A stretch of 64,000 bases of DNA from positions 60,575 to 124,574 of the forward strand of contig CAYMZD010000002.1 in the NCBI GenBank assembly GCA_964394855.1. The letters are read 5' to 3'. The stretch comes from an uncultured Gammaproteobacteria bacterium (GTDB lineage Bacteria; Patescibacteriota; Microgenomatia; Daviesbacterales; UBA10151). The notes under the pieces are model-generated. The model was not told the origin of the DNA. It was given only the letters and a program-made list of their open reading frames with translations, and ran no database searches. Made by a program: the position numbers and the translations under genes. Each line of letters opens with the position of its first letter. The first letter of the stretch is position 1. Below are positions 20,033-53,190 of the stretch, one piece after another.

Positions 20033-21220
20033 ATGAGGTACGTCAATATCCCTAAGTATTCTGATAGTTCTAATCGTAAAAGAAGTAACAGAATTTTAAA
20101 AAAATATAAACCCATTTTATTTTTGACTGCTTTGGTGGTAGCAATTGCTTTGGCAATGGCCATTTTTTCCGGCACAGAATCAGTTTTTCGCTTTGTTTTT
20201 CCAAGTTTGACACCGCTTGAAAATACTGATGGAAAAGTTAATGTACTTTTATTGGGTAACCCTGGAGGAGTGCATGATGGGGCATATCTGACAGATACCA
20301 TCATGGTGGCCTCATATAATTTAAAAAGTAGTCAAGTTTATTTTATCTCGCTGCCACGAGATTTATGGCTTGATAGCTACAAAGCTAAACTCAATGCTAT
20401 TTATGAGATAGGTTTGGCCAGAAAAGAAAGCTTAAAATTTGTCAAATCAGTAGTCGGTGATATCTTGGGTTTACCTATTCACTATGTCATCAGAGTTGAT
20501 TTTCGGGGTTTCGTCAAAGCTATTGATGAAGTGGGTGGTTTAGATATTTTAGTTGATCGTTCATTTAGTGACTCTTTATACCCTATTGAGGGTAAAGAAA
20601 ATGATTTGTGTGATTTAGAAGAAAAAGAAGTTGAGATTACAGATGAGCTGGCAGAAAAATATCAGCTAAAGATGGGAAAACAAAAAGTATTTATGGATTT
20701 TACGGGTAAGATTGCCACCCAGTCGGCAGATTTTCCCTGCCGCTTCGAACGTATTAGTTTTAGTGGTGGGCTGCAGCACATGAGCGGGGAAGTGGCCTTA
20801 AAATATGTTCGTTCTAGAATGGGCAGCAATGGGGAGGGTTCTGATTTTGCCAGATCCAAGCGTCAGCAAAAAGTACTGGAAGCTTTTCGCAAAAAGGCCT
20901 TATCTTTGGAAACCTTAGCTAGTCCCACCAAACTTAAATCTTTAATTGATACTTTGGGAATAAGTTTTGAAACTGATATACCAATAGATGATATGATTGA
21001 ACTTTATCGCTTAAGCAAAAAAAATCATCAGGTGGCTAATTTAGTCTTGGGGAATCTGCCATTTTTGATAAATCCACCAGCCCAAGATTATGGAGGAGCT
21101 TTTGTGGTAGTACCCAAAGACGGTAACTTTAATGAATTACACACATTCATCAAAAAAGTTATCAATGGGGAGGTGAGTTTAGATGAAGCTACTGCTTCTG
21201 CACGGACTGGCAATCGCTAG
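20033..21220 (+). CDS. LytR-CpsA-Psr (LCP) family cell-envelope glycopolymer transferase
   Basis: N-terminal TM anchor; LCP core (LLLGNPGGVHDGAYLTDTIMVASY, ISLPRDLWLD, KYVRSRMGSNGEGSDFARSKRQQKV). Confidence 0.7.
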   Translation: MRYVNIPKYSDSSNRKRSNRILKKYKPILFLTALVVAIALAMAIFSGTESVFRFVFPSLTPLENTDGKVNVLLLGNPGGVHDGAYLTDTIMVASYNLKSSQVYFISLPRDLWLDSYKAKLNAIYEIGLARKESLKFVKSVVGDILGLPIHYVIRVDFRGFVKAIDEVGGLDILVDRSFSDSLYPIEGKENDLCDLEEKEVEITDELAEKYQLKMGKQKVFMDFTGKIATQSADFPCRFERISFSGGLQHMSGEVALKYVRSRMGSNGEGSDFARSKRQQKVLEAFRKKALSLETLASPTKLKSLIDTLGISFETDIPIDDMIELYRLSKKNHQVANLVLGNLPFLINPPAQDYGGAFVVVPKDGNFNELHTFIKKVINGEVSLDEATASARTGNR

Positions 21221-21821
21221 CTCTAGAAAAAAATTAACTGACATTAAACAAAGCTTTACACCAGATAATGTGGTGACTTTCGAAAAAGGAGCAGAGCAGC
21301 AAGAGGTCTTGGCTAACTTACAATCTCTGTCTCTTTTTGCAGGTGAGAGGTTGGTTGTTTGGGAAAACCCCCCTGAAAGTTTTCAGTTAGCAGTCTTTTA
21401 TTCACAACTCCCCGTTACTTTAGCCCTATGGTTTGATCATGAGGTAGATACTAAAAATTGGAAAGATGCACAAACGTTATTTTTTCCAGAGGCAAAAGAA
21501 ATCTCTGTTTTTCCATTTTTAGACCACCTCGGTAATAAAGAAAGTAGCGCTTTTTCGGAACTGGATAAGTTAAAAAGAGGAGGCTTTGATAGTCAGTATA
21601 TTATTACTATGATTTTCTATCTTCTTAGGAATTTAGTAGCTACTCCCAAAAGTGCCAAAGCTTTTGTCAAAAGCAAAAATGAGAGGATGAAAGCCAATTT
21701 TTCTTTGGAGGAGTTAGTCAAATTGTACAGATCAGTTCTAGATTTAGATTTTAAAGTAAAAAGCGGCCTTTTGGATGAAACGCAAGCACAGTTTTTATTG
21801 GTTAATCTCTTTCTGTATTAA
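21183..21821 (+). CDS. holA: compact DNA polymerase III delta-subunit-like protein (HolA-like)
   Basis: SLFAGERLVVWENPPE resembles the delta-subunit clamp-loader motif (SLFA..LLLL.EN). Helical C-terminal domain. Weak, recalled from memory. Confidence 0.35.
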   Translation: MKLLLLHGLAIASSRKKLTDIKQSFTPDNVVTFEKGAEQQEVLANLQSLSLFAGERLVVWENPPESFQLAVFYSQLPVTLALWFDHEVDTKNWKDAQTLFFPEAKEISVFPFLDHLGNKESSAFSELDKLKRGGFDSQYIITMIFYLLRNLVATPKSAKAFVKSKNERMKANFSLEELVKLYRSVLDLDFKVKSGLLDETQAQFLLVNLFLY

Positions 21822-22709
21822 ATCTAAATCCTTTTTATCAACTTTTTCATCATCATTTAAATCAGCCCCTTTTTCTTTTGGGTTGGTGCCCATATTTTTT
21901 AAAACAATAGCATAATCGGAAGAGTTGATTAAACCATCTTTATTGAGATCAAATTTAGAATAAGCCGCAGGGGAAGCTTCATTTAATGTCAAGTTCAAAT
22001 CTTGGCCCATTTTTAATAAGATAAGAGGTTTATTCAGTTGTGATAACTTGAAAATGGCTCTAGCCACTCGTCCGTCTGGGCTGATAACTTCCAACTTGGC
22101 TTCTGTATCAGCTGGTGGATTTAATACCGCTGTCAGATCAGCTGTTCTAAGTTGACTAAGAGGAATGATAAAGGAACCAAGATCGGTGATAACTGCAGAC
22201 TGGATGGTAGCGTTAGGAATGGATAAATAGACCAGACCATCATGCAAGGGTTTATCTCCATCAATGACTGATCCAATGGTTGGTCCAAGGCCATTTTGGT
22301 TACTACTCAAAGGAGCGGTGGAAAATTGTCTGGAAGGAGTGACAAAATTACCAGAATGAATTTTTAGAAGATATGAAGATGCAGGCAGTAACCCCTTGAG
22401 GGTAATGTAATGATTTCTTCTTTTAATGGTCTGGGTTTCATCTCTGTCATCTAATTTGGTTTTTTCATTAGCAGTTCTTTGTCCATAAGTAATAAAACCA
22501 ATCACCGGAGTTTGGGTTTGCCATGATAAGGTGACAGTCTCACCTTCGATATTACTGATAACTACATTCTGTGGTGAAATATCAGGAGAAGCTGTGGTGA
22601 TTAAGGTTTGATTTTGTAGAACTAAATAGACACCACTGCCAATGCCAAAAATCAGTAAAGCTAGTCCTAAAAGAGTTGGGATTTTAAACTTATTTAAAAT
22701 ATTACTCAT
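21795..22709 (-). CDS. membrane-anchored extracellular protein with fibronectin-III-like domain and C-terminal type-I dockerin (two Ca-binding repeats)
   Basis: Signal-anchor (LLGLALLIFGIGSGVYLVL); FN3-like core (ETVTLSWQTQTPVIGFITYGQ...YLLKIHS); dockerin repeats DLNKDGLINSSDYAIVLKNMG and DLNDDEKVDKKDLDLIQKEI. Confidence 0.55.
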   Translation of the reverse strand: MSNILNKFKIPTLLGLALLIFGIGSGVYLVLQNQTLITTASPDISPQNVVISNIEGETVTLSWQTQTPVIGFITYGQRTANEKTKLDDRDETQTIKRRNHYITLKGLLPASSYLLKIHSGNFVTPSRQFSTAPLSSNQNGLGPTIGSVIDGDKPLHDGLVYLSIPNATIQSAVITDLGSFIIPLSQLRTADLTAVLNPPADTEAKLEVISPDGRVARAIFKLSQLNKPLILLKMGQDLNLTLNEASPAAYSKFDLNKDGLINSSDYAIVLKNMGTNPKEKGADLNDDEKVDKKDLDLIQKEINQ

Positions 22710-22873
22710 TAAATTCCTTCTAAATCAAAATTAGGATTGAGTGGTTCTATTAACTCCTGTGTTTTGGGTGGGATAGTGACCTTGGCTCTGGCATGAAGAA
22801 TATCAAATATCACCCAAGCGAGGACGGTAATTAAGGTGGCTATAGCAATAATTAAAAATTCTTTTCTACCCAT
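22709..22873 (-). CDS. unannotated small membrane protein (54 aa), translationally coupled (TAATG) to the FN3/dockerin gene
   Basis: Manual reverse-strand translation gives MGRKEFLIIAIATLITVLAWVIFDILHARAKVTIPPKTQELIEPLNPNFDLEGI (one TM helix). Below the 60-aa ORF-track cutoff. The stop overlaps the next ATG. Confidence 0.35.
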   Translation of the reverse strand: MGRKEFLIIAIATLITVLAWVIFDILHARAKVTIPPKTQELIEPLNPNFDLEGI

Positions 22874-22876
22874 AAT

Positions 22877-23482
22877 TTACTTCAAGTAGTAAGCCTTTCC
22901 GGAAATTGACAATAATAAATTGCTCCCTCCTTCTATTTTGCTAAAAATTAAATTATCAACGGTAATCAGTCTTTGACTTGTTTTAATATATTCTAAAACT
23001 TTTAGCAAGTTTTCATATGAACCCTCCAAATTATAAGTAAAGGGTACTTCTGTCAGCCGCTTTGAGAAAGATGTTGAGTTTGGTTCGATGGTGATTTGTT
23101 GGAACTGTAATGCTGATATTGAGGCTTGGAGCCCTGAAGGTAAATTTTCCAAGGATTTAGTTAAAGCCGCCAGCTCTGGATTATTAGGGACTGCATCTTG
23201 GATACTGGCTTTAATATTGGGGTCTAGGCTTTGATAGTTTTTTCTGGCTTTTGTCAAATCTTCACTTTTTTGAGTAATTTGATTAAGAATTACTTCTTGG
23301 TTAGCTAATTCTTTTTGTAAAACAAGAATGGTTTCTATGGTAGGTTTAATGGCAAAAATGGTAAAAATGATGATGGCGGCAATTGTCAGGATTATTCCTC
23401 CATATGTTTTAATAAGTGGGGTTTTTAAGACAGGCTCAATATAGGTAAAATATCTAGATGTTCTGGTTGATCTGGCAATCAT
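22877..23482 (-). CDS. pilO: type IV pilus assembly protein PilO-like
   Basis: Short cytoplasmic N-terminus, one TM (GGIILTIAAIIIFTIFAI), coiled-coil, then periplasmic alpha/beta domain; 4-nt overlap with the pilN-like stop. Confidence 0.5.
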   Translation of the reverse strand: MIARSTRTSRYFTYIEPVLKTPLIKTYGGIILTIAAIIIFTIFAIKPTIETILVLQKELANQEVILNQITQKSEDLTKARKNYQSLDPNIKASIQDAVPNNPELAALTKSLENLPSGLQASISALQFQQITIEPNSTSFSKRLTEVPFTYNLEGSYENLLKVLEYIKTSQRLITVDNLIFSKIEGGSNLLLSISGKAYYLK

Positions 23483-24063
23483 AATTTTTTTTCTCCTATT
23501 GTCTCTACGTTAACTGATGCCTGGATGGAGAAATTAATTAACCCCTGATCCAAACTGACGCTAGTCAAATTCGTATCAGCAAAGGTTTTATCCTGTCTAA
23601 GTCCCAAAACAAAGCTGGACAGCTCACTGTTATTTAAAGATGTCCCGGTTATCTTGAGATTAACCTTTCCCACCTGTCTTTCAATATTTAAATTGTTAAC
23701 AGTGACGCCATTGGGTGTTTGTTGAGCAATTTTTTTTATCACCTCAACATAAGCAGGAGACTTTTGTCTTAAATCTTTGATGGTGACCAATTGAAATTGG
23801 GTTTGTCTAATTAAGTTTTCATCTGATTTTAAACTTTCCACAAAAGGAACTTGTTCCTCTATGGCCTCCTTGGTGGTAGCGATGTCAGCATCTAACTTAA
23901 ATCTTAATAAAAACGCCGCCAGTACTATAGCCTCTACTAAGATGATTAAATATCGACCGGCAGAAAGTAGCCAGCGAAAAATATTTAGCAGTAGTTTTTG
24001 AGGCTCACCTTGGGGATGGAGGATATTAAGATAAATTAGGCTTTTTAACCTAAGTTTAGGCAT
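23479..24063 (-). CDS. pilN: type IV pilus assembly protein PilN-like
   Basis: N-terminal cytoplasmic peptide, TM (YLIILVEAIVLAAFLL), coiled-coil and periplasmic domain typical of PilN. Confidence 0.5.
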   Translation of the reverse strand: MPKLRLKSLIYLNILHPQGEPQKLLLNIFRWLLSAGRYLIILVEAIVLAAFLLRFKLDADIATTKEAIEEQVPFVESLKSDENLIRQTQFQLVTIKDLRQKSPAYVEVIKKIAQQTPNGVTVNNLNIERQVGKVNLKITGTSLNNSELSSFVLGLRQDKTFADTNLTSVSLDQGLINFSIQASVNVETIGEKKL

Positions 24064-24075
24064 GAATACATTGTA

Positions 24076-24333
24076 CTACTTTTTAGAGGTTTTTCTAACT
24101 ACTTTTGGTAGTCTTGATAATGTTGATTTTAATCGCGCGGACTTATTTTTATGAATTAGATGAGTTTTGGCCGCTTTATCAAGTGCAGAAAAAACTGCCT
24201 TGAGATTAAGGTCATTTTTTTCTATCCTGGCTTTTTTAATCAAGGATTTTAAGTTACTTTCCTGTTGCTTGTGGCGCCGGGTTCTAGTGCGGTCTTTTCT
24301 TAATTTTTTAATGGCTGATTTGATGAGTGGCAT
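24076..24333 (-). CDS. rpsT: 30S ribosomal protein S20
   Basis: MPLIKSAIKKLRKDRTRTRRHK ... basic helical 85-aa protein matching S20. Confidence 0.85.
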   Translation of the reverse strand: MPLIKSAIKKLRKDRTRTRRHKQQESNLKSLIKKARIEKNDLNLKAVFSALDKAAKTHLIHKNKSARLKSTLSRLPKVVRKTSKK

Positions 24334-26006
24334 ATGGGCAGTATGGTAACATATATGAAGTGGTTAAATCAATCCTTTCTCTTTTAACTGTCAGGCAAAC
24401 TTCAATTTTATCTGGTGCTATTATTATTATGGCCACAGTGGTAATTTCCAAAATTTTGGGACTTTTACGTGATAGATTATTAGTGCACAATTTTACTCCT
24501 GACACTGTGGCTATTTTTTTTGCCGCCTTCCGTCTACCTGATTTAATTTTCCAGCTGTTAATTTTTGGAGCATTGTCAGTAGCTTTTATTCCTGTTTTTA
24601 CAGAGTACTTAGAAGGAAAAGGAAAAAATGAGGCTTTTCAGCTGGCCGGCTCAATCTTAAATTTAGCTCTCTTAATCTTAATTATAGTCACGGCAGTGAT
24701 GTTTCTGCTGGTTGAGCCCTTAACTTCTTTGATAGTTCCCGGTTTTAACCCACAGCAACAAGGGCAAGTAGCCCAGTTAACCAGGATAATTTTACTGGGT
24801 CAGATTGTCTTGACTATTGGCTCTTTTTTTATCGGTATTTTACAATCATTTCAAAGATTTATCATCCCGGCTTTAGCAGGAATTTTTTATAATTTGGGAA
24901 TTATTTTGGGGATAGTATTTTTGGGAAAACCTTTGGGAATTTTAGGTCCAGCCGTAGGAGTTATTATTGGGGCTGGTTTACACGGCCTAATTCAGCTGCC
25001 TTTGGTTTTATCGCTGGGTTTTAAGATTAGTTTTTCTAGGTTGTTACATCCAGGAGTAAAAGACTTAGTTCAACTGATGAGTATGAGAACAATTGGTTTG
25101 GCAGCAGAACAGGTCAATGAAACTGTAGGTTTAATTTTAGCTTCCCTAATTTCTACGGCCTCTGTGACATATCTCACCTTTGCCCAGCATTTGCAAATTG
25201 TGCCGGTTGGTCTTTTCGGGGCAACTATTGCTCAAGCCGCCCTGCCGGTTTTGTCAACAGAGAGGGCTAGAGGTCGGGTGGAAGAGTTTAAATCTACTCT
25301 TTTAACCACGATTCATCAAATTCTTTTTTTAAGTTTGCCAGCTGCCGCCATTTTAATAGTGCTTCGTATTCCTGCAGTCAGACTTATTTTTGGAGCCTCA
25401 CAGTTTGATTGGCCTTCAACTGTTTTAACAGGTAAAACCTTAGCTTTTTTATCCATTGGTCTGGCAACTCAAGCAGTCTCGCTGCTTTTAGTCAGAGGGT
25501 TTTATGCCCTCAAGGATACCCGGACTCCGGTTTTGGTATCCTTGGTGGTAGTGGCAGTGGATATTTTTTTGAGCTTTTATTTTATTAGAGTGCTAAATTT
25601 AGAGGTGTGGGGTTTGGGACTCGCTTTTTCCATTTCTAGTATTTTATCTGGGTTGTTGCTTTTTTTAACTCTTCATTTTAAAGTGGGTGGATTTAAGATG
25701 AGTTCTGTTTTATCACCCTTTTTAAAAATGTTAATGGCCACAATGATTATGGGAGTGGCTTTATATGTGCCCATCAAACTTTTGGATCAAGTAATTTTTG
25801 ATACCACCAGAACTGTTAATTTACTAATTTTAACAAGCTTAGCTTTCATTTTTGCTCTGTCTGTTTATGTAGTTTTGGTCTGGTTTATGAGAGTAAAAGA
25901 ACTGGCAACTTTTATTAATTTGTTAAAACATGTATTTGGAAAGGTGCGAGCAGTTGGTTCTCAAGTCAAAACAGAAGAAATTATCCACGAAACAGAAACA
26001 CTTTAG
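24327..26006 (+). CDS. murJ: lipid II flippase MurJ (MviN)
   Basis: 14 TM MOP-superfamily protein; N-terminal SGAIIIMATVVISKILGLLRDRLL matches the MurJ TM1 signature. The track start is a GTG that overlaps the rpsT start by 7 nt, so the exact start is uncertain. Confidence 0.8.
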   Translation: MAYGQYGNIYEVVKSILSLLTVRQTSILSGAIIIMATVVISKILGLLRDRLLVHNFTPDTVAIFFAAFRLPDLIFQLLIFGALSVAFIPVFTEYLEGKGKNEAFQLAGSILNLALLILIIVTAVMFLLVEPLTSLIVPGFNPQQQGQVAQLTRIILLGQIVLTIGSFFIGILQSFQRFIIPALAGIFYNLGIILGIVFLGKPLGILGPAVGVIIGAGLHGLIQLPLVLSLGFKISFSRLLHPGVKDLVQLMSMRTIGLAAEQVNETVGLILASLISTASVTYLTFAQHLQIVPVGLFGATIAQAALPVLSTERARGRVEEFKSTLLTTIHQILFLSLPAAAILIVLRIPAVRLIFGASQFDWPSTVLTGKTLAFLSIGLATQAVSLLLVRGFYALKDTRTPVLVSLVVVAVDIFLSFYFIRVLNLEVWGLGLAFSISSILSGLLLFLTLHFKVGGFKMSSVLSPFLKMLMATMIMGVALYVPIKLLDQVIFDTTRTVNLLILTSLAFIFALSVYVVLVWFMRVKELATFINLLKHVFGKVRAVGSQVKTEEIIHETETL

Positions 26007-49078: not shown

Positions 49079-50380
49079 ATGAATTCTGATAACTTAAGAG
49101 AGAAATTTTTAAAATTTTTTGCCAGATGCGGACATGTCATCATCCCCTCTGCCTCATTAATACCTTCGGCAGAAGAACAATTAGCTGGTAAAGAAAAGGT
49201 TTTATTTACCAGCGCTGGTATGCAGCCTTTAATTCCCTACCTTTTAGGTAAACCACACCCTCAAGGTAAAAGATTAGCTGATGTACAAAAATGTTTAAGA
49301 ACCGATGATATAGAAGAAGTAGGAGATGCTGTGCATAATACATTTTTTGAAATGTTAGGGAATTGGTCGCTCGGTGCTTATTGGAAGGATGAAGCTATAA
49401 GACTTTCTTTTGAATTTTTGACTAAAGAGTTAGAAATTTCCATAGAAAAGTTAGCAGTCAGTGTGTTTGCAGGGGATGAAAATACTCCCAAAGATGAGGA
49501 GTCGGCAAGAGTATGGGAAAGTCTGGGAATTCCCAAAGATAGGATTTTTTATTTTGGTAAAGAATATAATTGGTGGCCAACTGGTGAAAAATCAGGCCCA
49601 TGTGGTCCAGATACGGAAATGTTTTATTGGACAGGGGAAGGTGAACCAGCAGGCAAGCCAAATGAAAATTCTTTATGGGTGGAAATATGGAATGATGTTT
49701 TTATGCAGTTCAATCGGCAAGATGACGGGATGCTGGAGGAGCTAAAACAAAAAAACGTTGATACGGGGATGGGACTGGAAAGAACTTTAGCGGTATTAAA
49801 TGGTAAAAAAAACAATTACCAAACAGATTTATTTGAACCAATTATGCAGATGATCGAAAAGGTGACAGGCAAAGTATATGGACAAGACGATTGGGATACT
49901 GTCCGATTCAGAATCATTGCTGATCATGTTAAAGGAGCAACCTTTTTAATTGGGGATGGTGTCAGGCCTTCGAATAAAGATAGAGGTTATATTTTACGTC
50001 GTCTAGTTCGCCGTGCGGCCATGCAACTGCATTTATTAAAAAAAATTACCAATGAAAAAGACTTTATTTCTATTAGCGACGCTGTTATTGAGATCTATGG
50101 AGGATTTTATTTTTTAGATTCAGAGCATCAAAGAAAAATCGTGGCGGAGGAAATTGGAGCAGAGATTTCTAAATTTATTAAAACAATTGAAAAAGGTTTA
50201 CAGGTATATAAAAAAACAGGACAAGTTGTTTCTGGTCAAGAAGCTTTCTTTCTTTTCCAAAGCTTTGGTTTTCCCCTAGAGTTGACAATGGATTTAGCCA
50301 AAGAAGATGGTAAGATGATAGATAAAGAGGGATTTGAGAAAGAATTTAAAAAGCATCAAGCTATTTCCCGTGGGGAGTAG
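49079..50380 (+). CDS. alaS: alanyl-tRNA synthetase, catalytic + tRNA-recognition core only (433 aa; no editing or C-Ala domains)
   Basis: Class II AlaRS N-terminus (FLKFFARCGHVIIPSASLIP, LFTSAGMQP, QKCLRTDDIEEVGDAVHNTFFEMLGNWSLGAYWK, WWPTGEKSGPCGPDTE). The stop at 50380 is followed by an unrelated gene. Confidence 0.8.
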   Translation: MNSDNLREKFLKFFARCGHVIIPSASLIPSAEEQLAGKEKVLFTSAGMQPLIPYLLGKPHPQGKRLADVQKCLRTDDIEEVGDAVHNTFFEMLGNWSLGAYWKDEAIRLSFEFLTKELEISIEKLAVSVFAGDENTPKDEESARVWESLGIPKDRIFYFGKEYNWWPTGEKSGPCGPDTEMFYWTGEGEPAGKPNENSLWVEIWNDVFMQFNRQDDGMLEELKQKNVDTGMGLERTLAVLNGKKNNYQTDLFEPIMQMIEKVTGKVYGQDDWDTVRFRIIADHVKGATFLIGDGVRPSNKDRGYILRRLVRRAAMQLHLLKKITNEKDFISISDAVIEIYGGFYFLDSEHQRKIVAEEIGAEISKFIKTIEKGLQVYKKTGQVVSGQEAFFLFQSFGFPLELTMDLAKEDGKMIDKEGFEKEFKKHQAISRGE

Positions 50381-50404: not shown

Positions 50405-52540
50405 ATGAGCTTGTTGGAAAAACTCACTAATTTCTTACCATTTACCAAAACTAAGCAGCAGGCAAAACACTTCTTTGCTTTAAATATTGGCCCGGAAAAA
50501 GTTAAAGCAGCTCTTTGGTCTATTGAGGATAAAAATTTACAAGTTGTTAACCCTGTTTTTACAAAATACTCTTCCGCGGATGAACTTTTACAAGTAGCTG
50601 ACCATTTACTTGATCAGACATTGGGAGATCTAAATGTGGAGCCAGAAAAAATTCTTTTTGGTGTTCCAGATTCTTGGCTATTGGATGATGAGTTAAAAGA
50701 ACCATATTTGAAACTCCTTCGTAATATAGTTAAAGAGCTAAGTTTAAAACCCATGGCTTATGTAGCCACCTCACATGCGCTGGCTCATTTTCTAGAGAGT
50801 CTTGAGGGAGCACCCACTACAGCCATTTTAGTGGGTATTGAGGAGAGTTTCTTGAGCATCACAGTAGTCAGGGCTGGTAAAATTGATGGGACTAAACTGA
50901 TAAAGCGGGGTGATAATCTTGGGGAAGAGATTGAAAAAGCGCTACTTTCTTTTACCGAAGTTGAGGTTTTACCTTCAAAAATATTGTTATATGGCTTGGA
51001 GGGGTTAGATAAACACAAAAGCAATTTACTGGCTTTTCCCTGGATGTCAAAACTATCTTTCCTGCATTTTCCCAAGATCGAGACCTTGGAAGAAGATGTA
51101 GAGTTAACAGCAACAGCTTTAGCTGGAGCAGTGGAACTTCAAGGTGATGTTAAATATTCCCCCAGTTCATCTATGGTCACCATCACCCCCCAAAAAAAGT
51201 TATCGGTAATGGAGGAAGAGGAAGCTGAAGAAAGGAAGCCACCAACAAAGACACAAAATGAAACTGGTTTTGTGACAGGGGATATTACCAAAGTACCAGA
51301 AAAGGAAGAACCAGAGGAAGAGAAGCCCCCCATGATCGTGGCTGAAGATGAGCTGTTAGAGCAGCCCCATCATGCAAGATTTAAGCTACCATTTTTAAAG
51401 CTGTCTTATTTGAGGGGTAAAAATAAGTTACTTATTTTGCCGGCAGCAATTTTAATTTTGACTATTTTCTATCTATTATTCTCTCAAGCCAAAGTGACTG
51501 TTTTTGTGGAACCACGAGTTTTAGAAAGAGACTCTCAAGTTACAGCTGATCCCAATGTAAAGACGGTTGATGAAGCAAATAAGATTATTCCAGGACAATT
51601 CACAGAAGTGCAGGTTGCTGGATCAGACAAGTTGGCAGCCACTGGAAGAAAAGAGGTGGGTGATCCAGCCAAAGGCACAGTGGTTATTTATAATAAGACA
51701 GATTCTGCCAAGACGTTTTCTAGTGGTACCGCTTTAACTGGTTCAGGTGGACTCAAGTTTACTCTAAATTCTACTGTTAATGTTGCTTCCCAATCGGCCA
51801 TTGAAGGGGGTATCTCTTTTGGGAAAGCCACTACCGGTGTGACTGCTGTTTTGATAGGAGCAGATGGAAATATCTCGTCTGGGACAGAATTGTCTTTAGC
51901 TAGTTTTTCTTCCTCACAATATTCAGCTAAAGCCGAAGGTAATTTTTCTGGAGGGAACTCCAAAGAAGTAACTGTGGTGACAGATAGTGATCAGAAAAAA
52001 CTTTTAGCATCTTTGGCAGCAGCGCTTCGCAAAAAAGCCCAAGAGGAATTGCAAAAAAGCTTGGAAGGAAAAAAGATTCTAGAAGAAGCTCTGTCTGAAG
52101 ATATTATTAAAAAATCATACTCCAAGAATATCAATGATCAAGCATCGGAATTTTCTTTAAGCTTGACTATTAAATATAAAGGTATTGCCTATTCTGAACC
52201 TGATTTAAAGCTGATCGTTTCCAAATTAATAGAAACTAATGTCCCGGCTGATTTTGAGTTGAACTTAGCTGAAACAGAGACGCAAGCAGATGTTTCCAAG
52301 CTGGAAAAAGATAAATTGATCTTTCTGGCACGGTTTAAAGCTAAATTAATGCCCAAATTGGATATAGCTAAAATAAAATCACAACTTAGGGGGAAAACAC
52401 CTCAAGAGGTAGCCGCTATTTTAAAAAGTTATGAAAATGTTTTAGGTTCTGACATAAAACTTAATCCTTCCTTGCCTGCCCCAATTGCCAGGTTACCGCT
52501 ATTGGATAGAAATATCCACATCGAGGTGAGTTTGAAGTAA
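50405..52540 (+). CDS. bitopic membrane protein: degenerate actin-like (FtsA/PilM/GspL-type) cytoplasmic domain, acidic linker, TM helix, ~330-aa extracellular domain
   Basis: N-terminal pattern FALNIGPEKVKAALWS ... AILVGIEESFLSITVVRAGKI ... ILLYGLEG resembles ASKHA phosphate/adenosine motifs with substitutions. Glu-rich linker, then TM (LLILPAAILILTIFYLLF), then a Ser/Thr/Gly-rich beta-type region. Confidence 0.35.
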   Translation: MSLLEKLTNFLPFTKTKQQAKHFFALNIGPEKVKAALWSIEDKNLQVVNPVFTKYSSADELLQVADHLLDQTLGDLNVEPEKILFGVPDSWLLDDELKEPYLKLLRNIVKELSLKPMAYVATSHALAHFLESLEGAPTTAILVGIEESFLSITVVRAGKIDGTKLIKRGDNLGEEIEKALLSFTEVEVLPSKILLYGLEGLDKHKSNLLAFPWMSKLSFLHFPKIETLEEDVELTATALAGAVELQGDVKYSPSSSMVTITPQKKLSVMEEEEAEERKPPTKTQNETGFVTGDITKVPEKEEPEEEKPPMIVAEDELLEQPHHARFKLPFLKLSYLRGKNKLLILPAAILILTIFYLLFSQAKVTVFVEPRVLERDSQVTADPNVKTVDEANKIIPGQFTEVQVAGSDKLAATGRKEVGDPAKGTVVIYNKTDSAKTFSSGTALTGSGGLKFTLNSTVNVASQSAIEGGISFGKATTGVTAVLIGADGNISSGTELSLASFSSSQYSAKAEGNFSGGNSKEVTVVTDSDQKKLLASLAAALRKKAQEELQKSLEGKKILEEALSEDIIKKSYSKNINDQASEFSLSLTIKYKGIAYSEPDLKLIVSKLIETNVPADFELNLAETETQADVSKLEKDKLIFLARFKAKLMPKLDIAKIKSQLRGKTPQEVAAILKSYENVLGSDIKLNPSLPAPIARLPLLDRNIHIEVSLK

Positions 52541-52542
52541 TA

Positions 52543-53190
52543 ATGAATGGTAAATTACTGGCACTTCCACTTTTGGGTTTAGGGGTATTTTTACTTTTGC
52601 AGGTGAGTTTACCTCTTTTAAGTTTTAAGATTTGGGAATTAAAGTTTATTCAGAGTAATAATTTATTGATCAGTCCTCAACCACCCAAGAAACATGTTCT
52701 AGGGGTCTCTATTCAAAAACAAGATGGGAGTTTTCCTGCTTTTATTTCTAGCTTACAGCGAGATATAAAGGCTCCTTTTGATGAGTTTACTATGTCTGTG
52801 CCTCGTCTAGAAATTAAACAAGCCAAGGTTTTAGTAGATAGTAATGATTTAACAGCAGGGCTCGCTCATTTACCAGGCTCGGCTCTACCTGGAGAGCGGG
52901 GTAATGTTTTTATATCAGGCCACTCCAGCTTGCCACAATTTTTCAAAGGTGACAAAAATTATGGAGCTATTTTTGCCAATTTAGCTAATTTAAAAAAGGG
53001 AGATCAGATTTTAATACAAGTAGGAGGTAGTGAATTTAACTATCAAGTGCTGGGGATAAAAATTGTTGAGCCAAATGATTTATCAGTCATCCTACCACCT
53101 GATGAAACTGGGCGGTTTCTCTCTTTAATGACCTGTGTTCCCCCTGGGCTTAATACTAAGCGCCTGGTAGTTTTAGCCAAATTAATCTGA
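52543..53190 (+). CDS. sortase-family transpeptidase
   Basis: N-terminal TM anchor; catalytic His (VFISGHSS), TLxTC-type Cys (SLMTCVPPG), C-terminal Arg (TKRLVVLA). Confidence 0.65.
   Translation: MNGKLLALPLLGLGVFLLLQVSLPLLSFKIWELKFIQSNNLLISPQPPKKHVLGVSIQKQDGSFPAFISSLQRDIKAPFDEFTMSVPRLEIKQAKVLVDSNDLTAGLAHLPGSALPGERGNVFISGHSSLPQFFKGDKNYGAIFANLANLKKGDQILIQVGGSEFNYQVLGIKIVEPNDLSVILPPDETGRFLSLMTCVPPGLNTKRLVVLAKLI

Follow-up and report, generated by a model that had tools for sequence, protein, structure and literature searches.

In the type IVa pilus machines of Pseudomonas and Myxococcus, PilM, PilN, PilO and PilP make up an alignment complex, and in double-membraned bacteria it is PilP, together with PilQ, that links the pilus platform outward. 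PilW takes this part in Thermus: in the pilMNOWQ cluster of Thermus thermophilus, the gene for PilW follows pilO, and its membrane-anchored product is regarded as a connection between the platform and the outer layers of the envelope. The INLLP motif of PilN is the peptide bound by PilM in known systems, as in the Thermus PilM-PilN structure. In the GspL-GspM-GspC assembly of type II secretion systems (T2SS), GspC spans the membrane once; its ectodomain is a beta-sandwich, after which comes an exchangeable module for interactions at the C-terminus, either a PDZ domain or a coiled coil. Here we describe a block of four genes, encoding PilN-like and PilO-like proteins, a small membrane protein and an envelope protein with a fibronectin type III (FN3) domain, in a 64-kb stretch of contig CAYMZD010000002.1 (positions 60,575 to 124,574). 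We refer to this whole stretch as the window. Its host is an ultra-small groundwater bacterium of the Daviesbacteria, which belong to the Microgenomates branch of the candidate phyla radiation (CPR; Patescibacteria). The block is conserved well beyond the Daviesbacteria, and the FN3 protein ends in a dockerin in that lineage and in an anchor-like tail in others. We consider it possible, though somewhat less than probable, that the block encodes a Microgenomates-specific extension of the type IV pilus (T4P) alignment complex whose distal end is fixed in the envelope.

CPR bacteria use T4P for host attachment and probably for DNA uptake, and they do so without the secretin and PilP that link the platform to the outer envelope elsewhere. 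Their genomes have been reported to carry PilM, PilN, PilO, PilB, PilT, PilC and PilD, without PilQ (PMC6744442). In a complete Microgenomates genome, a single T4P locus was described with PilM, PilB, PilT, PilC, PilD and pilins, and PilN and PilO were not listed (PMC7143001), which fits their being encoded separately, as they are in the window. Sortase has been reported as nearly universal in Microgenomates (PMC6744442), and there is a report that Shapirobacterales express cohesin and dockerin proteins (bioRxiv 10.1101/2021.08.21.457207). In Ruminococcus flavefaciens, the dockerins of ScaB and CttA bind ScaE, a sortase-anchored protein with a single cohesin (PMC2930009).

Results

Five genes are tightly packed on the minus strand of the window, in the order rpsT, pilN, pilO, a gene for a protein of 54 amino acids (aa) and a gene for a protein of 304 aa. 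The PilN-like gene (194 aa; 24063..23479, minus strand) and the PilO-like gene (201 aa; 23482..22877, minus strand) overlap by 4 nt (ATGA). Three nucleotides separate the pilO stop from the start of the small single-pass gene (54 aa; 22873..22709, minus strand; TAA-ATT-ATG), which in turn overlaps the gene for the 304-aa FN3/dockerin envelope protein (22709..21795, minus strand) by 1 nt, the sequence TAATG supplying an A common to the TAA stop and the ATG. Each of the four block proteins carries one hydrophobic segment. The open reading frames (ORFs) and junctions agree with those of a first-pass annotation of this DNA, which had also remarked that rpsT, and not pilM, lies upstream of pilN; rpsT is indeed located 12 nt upstream, and no pilM family match was found among the window ORFs scanned. 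Its description of the 54-aa ORF as unannotated is not quite accurate: the public gene set (contig JACQIZ010000003.1; GCA_016198205.1) already includes the gene, and only a family assignment is lacking.

We compared the block with three other Daviesbacteria genomes, one of them a closed 820-kb chromosome, and with about 100 loci from species-representative genomes and metagenome contigs. The scan query was the conserved core of the FN3 protein, in a four-sequence core alignment, and per-gene hidden Markov models (HMMs) were then run on all ORFs of the loci. A full-length alignment was rejected as the query; the dockerin motif swamped the pattern, and the matches listed were mostly unrelated dockerin proteins from Planctomycetes, Bathyarchaeia and others. 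In all three other Daviesbacteria genomes, rpsT, pilN, pilO, a gene for 56-59 aa and an FN3/dockerin gene occurred in the same order. Across genomes and metagenomes we recovered 65 distinct FN3-protein homologues, with identities to the window protein from 48% down to about 24%, and the order pilN-pilO-small gene-FN3 gene was intact in 40 of the 40 distinct loci that had at least 1.5 kb of upstream sequence. Junctions were 10 nt or shorter in 39/42, 45/52 and 48/56 cases, about half of them overlaps. The surroundings were less constant: rpsT was directly upstream of pilN in 24/32 related loci, a murJ-like gene lay less than 1 kb upstream in 24/32, and holA was downstream in 8/29 (8/8 loci with the short form of the FN3 protein and 0/21 with the long form, both described below). 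rpsT is therefore a frequent but dispensable neighbor. The block is thus better conserved than its flanks, even where FN3-protein identity falls to about 24%, which speaks for a functional unit. The coupling of pilN and pilO to a surface protein, noticed at first in the window alone, is thus kept far beyond this genome.

The PilN-like protein matched Pfam PF05137 over residues 108-183 with 44.3 bits (cut-off 22.8), and its homologue in one related locus (L007) scored 36.6 bits. It is a single-pass protein, with a cytoplasmic N-terminus bearing an INLLP-like motif (YLNILHP), a transmembrane (TM) helix, a coiled coil and the PilN domain. Across 41 aligned homologues, the N-terminal motif [IL]-[NED]-[LF]-[LIV]-[PKH] is kept and is followed by a conserved TM segment; its variants include INLLPKE (in many), IEFIPQE and LNLLKPQ, the window copy reading LNILHP. 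From this motif and the single-pass layout, the window PilN is predicted to bind PilM. The PilO-like protein, also single-pass, matched PF04350 with 35.1 bits (cut-off 22) and aligned with Myxococcus xanthus PilO (PDB 3jc8) over residues 14-182 (E = 5.7e-5). There were side matches to T2SSM_b (Pfam, 20.9 bits) and GspM (NCBIfam NF040576, E = 9e-5), and a weak one to DivIC. Given their adjacent, overlapping genes, the two proteins are candidates for a heterodimer within a pilus machine.

We did not find other pilus genes nearby. pilM, pilB, pilT, pilC and prepilin genes were absent from the window ORFs scanned and from the approximately 100 related loci, and no pilM, pilB, pilT or pilin gene lies within 5 kb or more of any copy of the block. 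No pilM-sized plus-strand ORF is present directly upstream of pilN in any related locus, and regular-expression scans of all loci and the window returned zero prepilin signals and zero PilB/PilT Walker motifs. Because none of these genes is close by, it is the PilN/PilO homology and one short motif that tie the block to pili. The same absence would be expected if the PilN/PilO-like pair worked outside any pilus machine, in a separate envelope complex that reuses the fold, for example in wall growth or division. Such a role would suit the usual neighbors, rpsT and a divergent murJ, the LCP, FemAB and G5/3D wall genes near the block in Daviesbacteria, and the weak DivIC and GspM matches of PilO; reuse of this kind has a precedent in flagellar motor cages, PilMNO homologues being known from flagella (PMC10823254). 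We nevertheless regard a function outside pili as improbable. An INLLP-like motif, as expected if PilM is bound, is retained at the N-terminus of PilN, and the flanking wall genes are not kept with the block in long-form lineages. In addition, PilM, PilN and PilO have been reported as components of CPR T4P (PMC6744442), and at least one Microgenomates T4P locus has been described without PilN and PilO (PMC7143001).

Elsewhere in the window, a 711-aa protein is encoded at 50405-52540 (plus strand), between a truncated alaS and a sortase gene. It had no match in Pfam, NCBIfam or PDB sequence searches, and its single-sequence AlphaFold model (predicted local distance difference test [pLDDT] score of 39.6) was unusable for judging whether it is a hidden PilM/GspL-like protein. 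On visual inspection, the first ~250 residues look similar to an actin-like domain of the FtsA/PilM type, followed by an acidic linker, a TM segment at ~340-358 and an external domain of ~350 aa; a protein of such GspL/PilM-like topology could be a hidden platform protein. The adjacent alanyl-tRNA synthetase gene (49079-50380, plus strand; 433 aa) covers positions 2-429 of the 552-position catalytic-domain profile, and the editing and C-terminal domains are apparently lacking.

The small protein has a basic N-terminus and one TM helix, in which a Trp is invariant; the external motif that follows is conserved and rich in Pro (K-[VT]-x-I-P-x-x-x-Q-E-x-x-x-P-[LI]-x-P-x-F) in an alignment of 54 homologues. 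The protein has no Pfam match. In the three other Daviesbacteria, where the large proteins are 43-47% identical to that of the window, the small proteins are 50-63% identical, and the gene is located between pilO and the FN3 gene in 40/40 informative loci. Its presence in an intact block in all of these loci, amid variable flanks, shows that the small ORF is a genuine, conserved gene.

The 304-aa protein is a 100% match to a Candidatus Daviesbacteria protein named 'fibronectin type III domain-containing protein' at NCBI, and it has 296 homologues. An AlphaFold2 model built with 55 homologues (mean pLDDT 90.3) gave a confident architecture, consisting of an N-terminal helix (residues 10-34), an FN3 sandwich (47-130), a second sandwich (144-239) and a helical, dockerin-type module with Ca loops (247-303). 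The FN3 domain (residues about 45-130; 22320..22577, minus strand) is of the purple-acid-phosphatase-N type; its DDRD loop is invariant, and it also has the motif H..T...L.P.T.Y. Its Pfam fn3 score, 24.9 bits, is just under the threshold of 25; together with the seven-strand sandwich fold, we took this profile match as sufficient for a fibronectin type III assignment. The second sandwich (residues about 144-239; 21993..22280, minus strand) resembles carboxypeptidase regulatory domains, its strands are modeled with pLDDT >90, and matches to PF13620 (CarboxypepD_reg) in long-form homologues support its type. The conserved core of the protein comprises the TM helix and both sandwiches, including the DDRD loop of the FN3 domain. 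We considered whether it could be a member of the PilP/GspC family and ruled this out, as neither the HR-domain fold nor sequence homology was detected.

The N-terminal hydrophobic segment (residues 10-34; 22608..22682, minus strand) is a helix in the model, and in 54 sequences its conservation (0.55) comes close to that of the folded domains (0.58-0.60). P11 and T12 are present in at least 90% of these sequences, as part of a P-T-x-x-G motif in the TM segment that belongs to the fixed head of the protein; A40 and P46 are conserved soon after the segment, which is also followed by an invariant Ala40-x-Pro42. The first-pass annotation had called the protein signal-anchored. A hydrophobic N-terminal helix is present, as that name implies, and the segment could be either a signal anchor or a long signal peptide of the Gram-positive type that is cleaved, although conservation this high would be unusual for a mere signal peptide. 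If it is cleaved, the FN3 protein would be held by its C-terminus only, like a wall-anchored adhesin.

Beyond the shared core, the FN3 protein occurs in two forms. The short, Daviesbacteria-type form is 304-331 aa long and has a dockerin in 12/12 complete proteins, including those at four loci of named Daviesbacteria genomes; the dockerin is restricted to this form. The long form (median 458 aa) has no dockerin, and its named members are Woesebacteria and Shapirobacteria, the others being labeled Microgenomates or Patescibacteria group. Its core is followed by a Big_13 Ig-like domain, a Pro/Thr-rich linker and a C-terminal tail, for example S-M-P-S-T-E-x-G-V-P-T-S-G-Y-L-T-P-T-F with a hydrophobic run and then basic residues after it. 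Tails of this composition, with a P-x-[ST]-G-like motif, were found in 41/42 long forms, and 34/42 matched the strict pattern [LIVMA]P.[STAPG]G with a hydrophobic run of at least 14 residues. [quoted passage not shown] On its sequence, the long-form tail may be a putative sortase signal or a plain C-terminal membrane anchor. The small protein is likewise shorter in the dockerin form, at 54-59 aa vs. 62-140 aa (median 98.5) with the long form, which fits the two proteins changing together. Because the long form has Big_13 and an anchor-like tail in its place, the dockerin reads as a lineage-specific replacement of a distal anchoring module, exchangeable and not the core of an adhesion complex. 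Of the pilus-associated adhesion or scaffolding complex proposed in the first-pass annotation, the organization of the four genes as one tight unit stands; the dockerin is not a conserved feature of that unit, and the pilus association is itself a conjecture from homology.

Directly downstream of the long-form FN3 gene, two related loci (L007:7343-9165 and L008:7347-9052) encode secreted Pro/Thr-rich proteins that end in ELP[ET]AG and a hydrophobic tail, one of them with three Cys-rich repeats. The arrangement points to local clustering of putative sortase substrates in long-form lineages.

The domain content of both forms leads to a second explanation: the FN3/dockerin protein would be a surface adhesin or glycan binder of the ordinary kind, used to attach to a host or to particles, which is merely co-expressed with pilN and pilO because both serve attachment and has no structural place in the pilus machine. 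Modules of the FN3, Ig-like (Big_13, Ca_tandemer-like) and dockerin types are characteristic of adhesins, fold searches yielded generic FN3 proteins only, and a C-terminal anchor with a free N-terminal head would be the classic wall-anchored layout if the N-terminal segment is a cleaved signal peptide. There is also a parallel in Southlakia, a CPR bacterium in cultivation, where essential envelope proteins with dockerin and FN3 domains have been proposed to target host glycans (PMC10633639). Adhesins, however, usually evolve fast and vary in domain number, whereas this protein keeps a fixed head (the DDRD loop and P-T-x-x-G) and a fixed position in 40/40 loci, and junctions overlapping by 1-4 nt suggest fixed stoichiometry over loose co-regulation. 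We therefore think it unlikely that the protein is only an adhesin, and continue to treat it as a possible subunit of an extended alignment complex.

The C-terminal module of the window protein (residues about 250-304; 21798..21962, minus strand) consists of two Ca-binding loop-helix repeats, with loops starting at D254 and D283. Dockerin_1 (PF00404) matched residues 253-303 with 32.5 bits (cut-off 22.9), compared to 14.1 bits for the best EF-hand model in Pfam (cut-off 25.4), and PF00404 was assigned to most of the best 120 of the 296 homologues. Both loops, DLNKDGLINSSD and DLNDDEKVDKKD, have the Ca ligands D, N, D and D at positions 1, 3, 5 and 12. Position 12 is habitually Asp in dockerins and Glu in EF-hands, and it is Asp in both loops here. 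The second loop, DLNDDEKVDKKD (D-L-N-D-D-E-K-V-D-K-K-D), departs from the family consensus DLNxDGVVDxKD at position 6, where it has Glu and at least 90% of the family have Gly (window 21840-21848, residues 288-290); Val at position 8 is likewise found in at least 90% of the family. The second loop of the window copy may for this reason bind Ca less well. The two repeats, called canonical in the first reading of this DNA, are so in their ligands and not in this residue.

A search with the last 60 residues as a single sequence was ambiguous, giving 30 bits for calmodulin EF-hands vs. 28.9 and 26.2 bits for solved dockerins. With a profile of 23 family members, the best PDB match was 2y3n_B, the dockerin of Cel48, which aligned with 43.9 bits as a single stretch across the two loops and with matching spacing, and calmodulins reached 37-39 bits only by summing partial stretches. 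As the family profile alone separates the two, we accept from these comparisons that the module is dockerin-type, and the concern raised at the outset that the repeats might be generic EF-hand noise can be set aside: the Pfam cut-off is passed and the profile's best match is a dockerin that binds cohesin.

The cohesin-bearing partner expected by the first-pass annotation was not found within the 64-kb window or the flanks of the related Daviesbacteria loci. In our local HMM scan of the fetched loci and the window, cohesins appeared in loci L015 and L020 only, and a search with a Microgenomates cohesin as query gave only Roizmanbacteria-like proteins among the 120 matches listed, none of them tied to Daviesbacteria. 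Nor does the protein resemble a cellulosome component, as it has no catalytic domain, and no cohesin or glycoside-hydrolase family match was found among the window ORFs scanned. It is thus conceivable that the module is a structural, Ca-binding, EF-hand-like cap without a cohesin partner, for which the dockerin label would be nominal. The slightly better single-sequence score against calmodulin, the Glu for Gly in the second loop and the lack of a cohesin in the window or flanks all point in this direction, and dockerin-like modules that lack a known cohesin are reportedly frequent in organisms that do not produce cellulosomes (Peer and colleagues, 2009). We rate such a cap as somewhat unlikely. 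The Pfam scores, with all EF-hand models far below their cut-offs, the single-stretch alignment of the family profile to a cohesin-bound dockerin and the Asp at position 12 of both loops speak against it, as does the abundance of cohesins in sister Microgenomates. The module also replaces an anchoring tail, which suggests an anchoring role.

Cohesins do occur in sister Microgenomates. Locus L015, from a Microgenomates metagenome-assembled genome, has a Pfam-significant cohesin (49.2 bits) beside a cohesin+dockerin protein and a small TM-FN3 protein. The four genes at L015:2798-6585 encode a 655-aa cohesin+dockerin protein, a 195-aa unknown protein, a 215-aa single-cohesin protein that ends in LPVSG and a hydrophobic tail, and a 195-aa TM-FN3 protein that is related to the 304-aa protein of the window in the latter's N-terminal part. 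The nearest named relatives of this cohesin are from Roizmanbacteria. It belongs to a large family of ~210-aa single-cohesin proteins that end in LPQSG, a hydrophobic run and R, with 117 representatives at E <1e-30 in a profile search of a 50%-identity library; named members are Roizmanbacteria (Microgenomates), a look-up of 20 representatives having named one. Sortase-type tails and cohesin-dockerin pairs thus both occur in Microgenomates. In one Daviesbacteria genome only, a 520-aa gene without a Pfam match is located between the dockerin gene and holA (L003:6967-8529, minus strand); it was not matched by a local HMM of the Microgenomates single-cohesin family.

Of the genes around the block, rpsT (ribosomal protein S20; 24333..24076, minus strand; Pfam Ribosomal_S20p 45.5 bits, TIGR00029 56.2 bits) is probably co-transcribed with pilN, and we place it outside the functional module. 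murJ (24327..26006, plus strand; PF03023 in the public gene call for the contig) is divergent from rpsT. holA (DNA polymerase III delta; 21183..21821, plus strand) is convergent with the block, and the 3' ends of holA and the dockerin gene overlap by 27 nt (21795-21821); its assignment comes from TIGR01128, at 45.4 bits and below that model's own cut-off of 80, and Pfam DNA_pol3_delta, at 21 bits. The sortase gene (52543..53190, plus strand; PF04203, 81.7 bits) is kept in the host genome although its FN3 protein has no C-terminal anchor tail. Promoter and terminator scans of 21500-24700 gave nothing exceeding chance, and Rfam and tRNA scans across the window gave zero matches.

Two further observations concern related loci. 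L007 (OZ246397.1, a 615-kb chromosome) and L009 are titled 'uncultured Gammaproteobacteria bacterium' and yet carry a block of Microgenomates type, murJ/rpsT/pilN/pilO/small gene/FN3; their proteins are 70% identical to ones named Woesebacteria and Shapirobacteria, and the taxonomic label is probably wrong. Near the block in L003, the thioredoxin gene (L003:11512-12945) encodes 531 aa with an intein-splicing domain (precomputed Pfam), compared to 85 aa in the window.

Discussion

The working model that we tentatively prefer, a Microgenomates-specific extension of the T4P alignment complex, would operate as follows. PilN and PilO would be the usual membrane alignment pair of the T4P machine, and the genes for PilM and the ATPases would lie at other sites of the genome. 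Two additional, lineage-specific subunits, the small protein and the FN3 protein, would join this pair in a four-protein membrane complex. Held at the membrane by its conserved N-terminal helix, the FN3 protein would project a rigid stalk of two sandwiches into the envelope. In the long form, the distal end of this stalk would be fixed by the sortase-signal-like or C-terminal-anchor-like tail that follows the Ig-like domain, possibly after processing by sortase, and in Daviesbacteria the dockerin would plug, Ca-dependently and non-covalently, into a cohesin-bearing envelope protein. The outcome would be a pilus platform tied to the wall or S-layer.

Several of our results weigh against this model. 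On the pilus side, they are the absence of pilM, pilB, pilT, pilC and prepilin genes from the vicinity of every copy of the block and the generic fold of the FN3 protein, for which fold searches gave no PilP, GspC or PilQ-like match. With regard to distal fixation, NCBIfam sorting-signal models give no match to the long-form tail, the second dockerin loop of the window copy has Glu for Gly, and no cohesin from our scans and searches, which covered the window and the Daviesbacteria flanks, was traceable to Daviesbacteria. Finally, in streamlined CPR genomes, genes can keep their order although their products do not interact physically, rpsT being an example. A stronger version of the model, in which the small and FN3 proteins are true Microgenomates T4P subunits that replace PilP and PilQ, with a cohesin-dockerin tie to the wall or S-layer in Daviesbacteria, seems to us distinctly doubtful; if true, it would be the first case of a cohesin-dockerin pair building a pilus machine and not an enzyme complex.

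PilN, PilO, FN3 and dockerin are known parts. The four-gene block, the small-protein family and the exchange of a dockerin for an anchor appear undescribed in the literature searched, in which there was no account of a coupling of pilN and pilO to a surface protein, as had been supposed when the locus was first read. The block is a testable candidate for how a CPR pilus machine is held in, or crosses, a Gram-positive-like wall and S-layer. The exchange of tail and dockerin suggests a general use of cohesin-dockerin pairs by these organisms as joints for surface attachment, unconnected with the breakdown of cellulose. Should the block not be pilus-related, it would be a new case of PilN/PilO-fold reuse in another envelope complex.

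Among known systems, the PilM-PilN-PilO-PilP complex of type IVa pili is similar in its adjacent, overlapping genes for single-pass PilN and PilO, its INLLP-like N-terminus and an envelope protein gene directly after pilO. It differs in that our block has no adjacent pilM and no PilQ, and has a tiny TM protein and an FN3 protein in place of the PilP lipoprotein. In Thermus pilMNOWQ, too, a gene for a lineage-specific, membrane-anchored protein stands right after pilO; the block has two extra genes instead of one and no secretin, and the likeness to PilW is by position alone. The FN3 protein can be compared with PilP and PilW by analogy of position and putative function only. Weak GspM matches of PilO recall the GspL-GspM-GspC proteins of T2SS, and GspC parallels the FN3 protein in its single membrane pass, beta-sandwich ectodomain and exchangeable C-terminal module, but the FN3 fold is not the GspC HR domain, and the block has no other Gsp genes and no secretin. 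The window organism, unlike bacteria with type IVa pili, is reported to lack an outer membrane (PMC6744442).

Descriptions of CPR T4P (PMC6744442; TM7x, PMC12206443; Ch65, PMC7143001) share with the block the PilN and PilO families, and sortase and unannotated membrane proteins are enriched in Microgenomates. The available text of these descriptions is silent on the small protein, on the FN3 protein and on any pilN-pilO block apart from pilM, and the T4P loci given for TM7x list pilM together with pilN and pilO (PMC12206443). The essential envelope proteins of Southlakia epibionticum, from another phylum (Saccharibacteria) and with no reported link to pilN or pilO, are comparable in domain content only, as CPR proteins with dockerin or FN3 domains that proved unexpectedly important (PMC10633639). 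For the distal module, the ScaE system of R. flavefaciens provides the comparison. The block differs from it in having no glycoside hydrolases or scaffoldins, in placing the dockerin protein in a pilus-platform operon and in that its cohesin partner is hypothetical. The two are alike in having a C-terminal dockerin that serves, or in our case may serve, purely for attachment to the cell surface, and Microgenomates have in their LPQSG-tailed proteins a family of small, single-cohesin proteins of their own.

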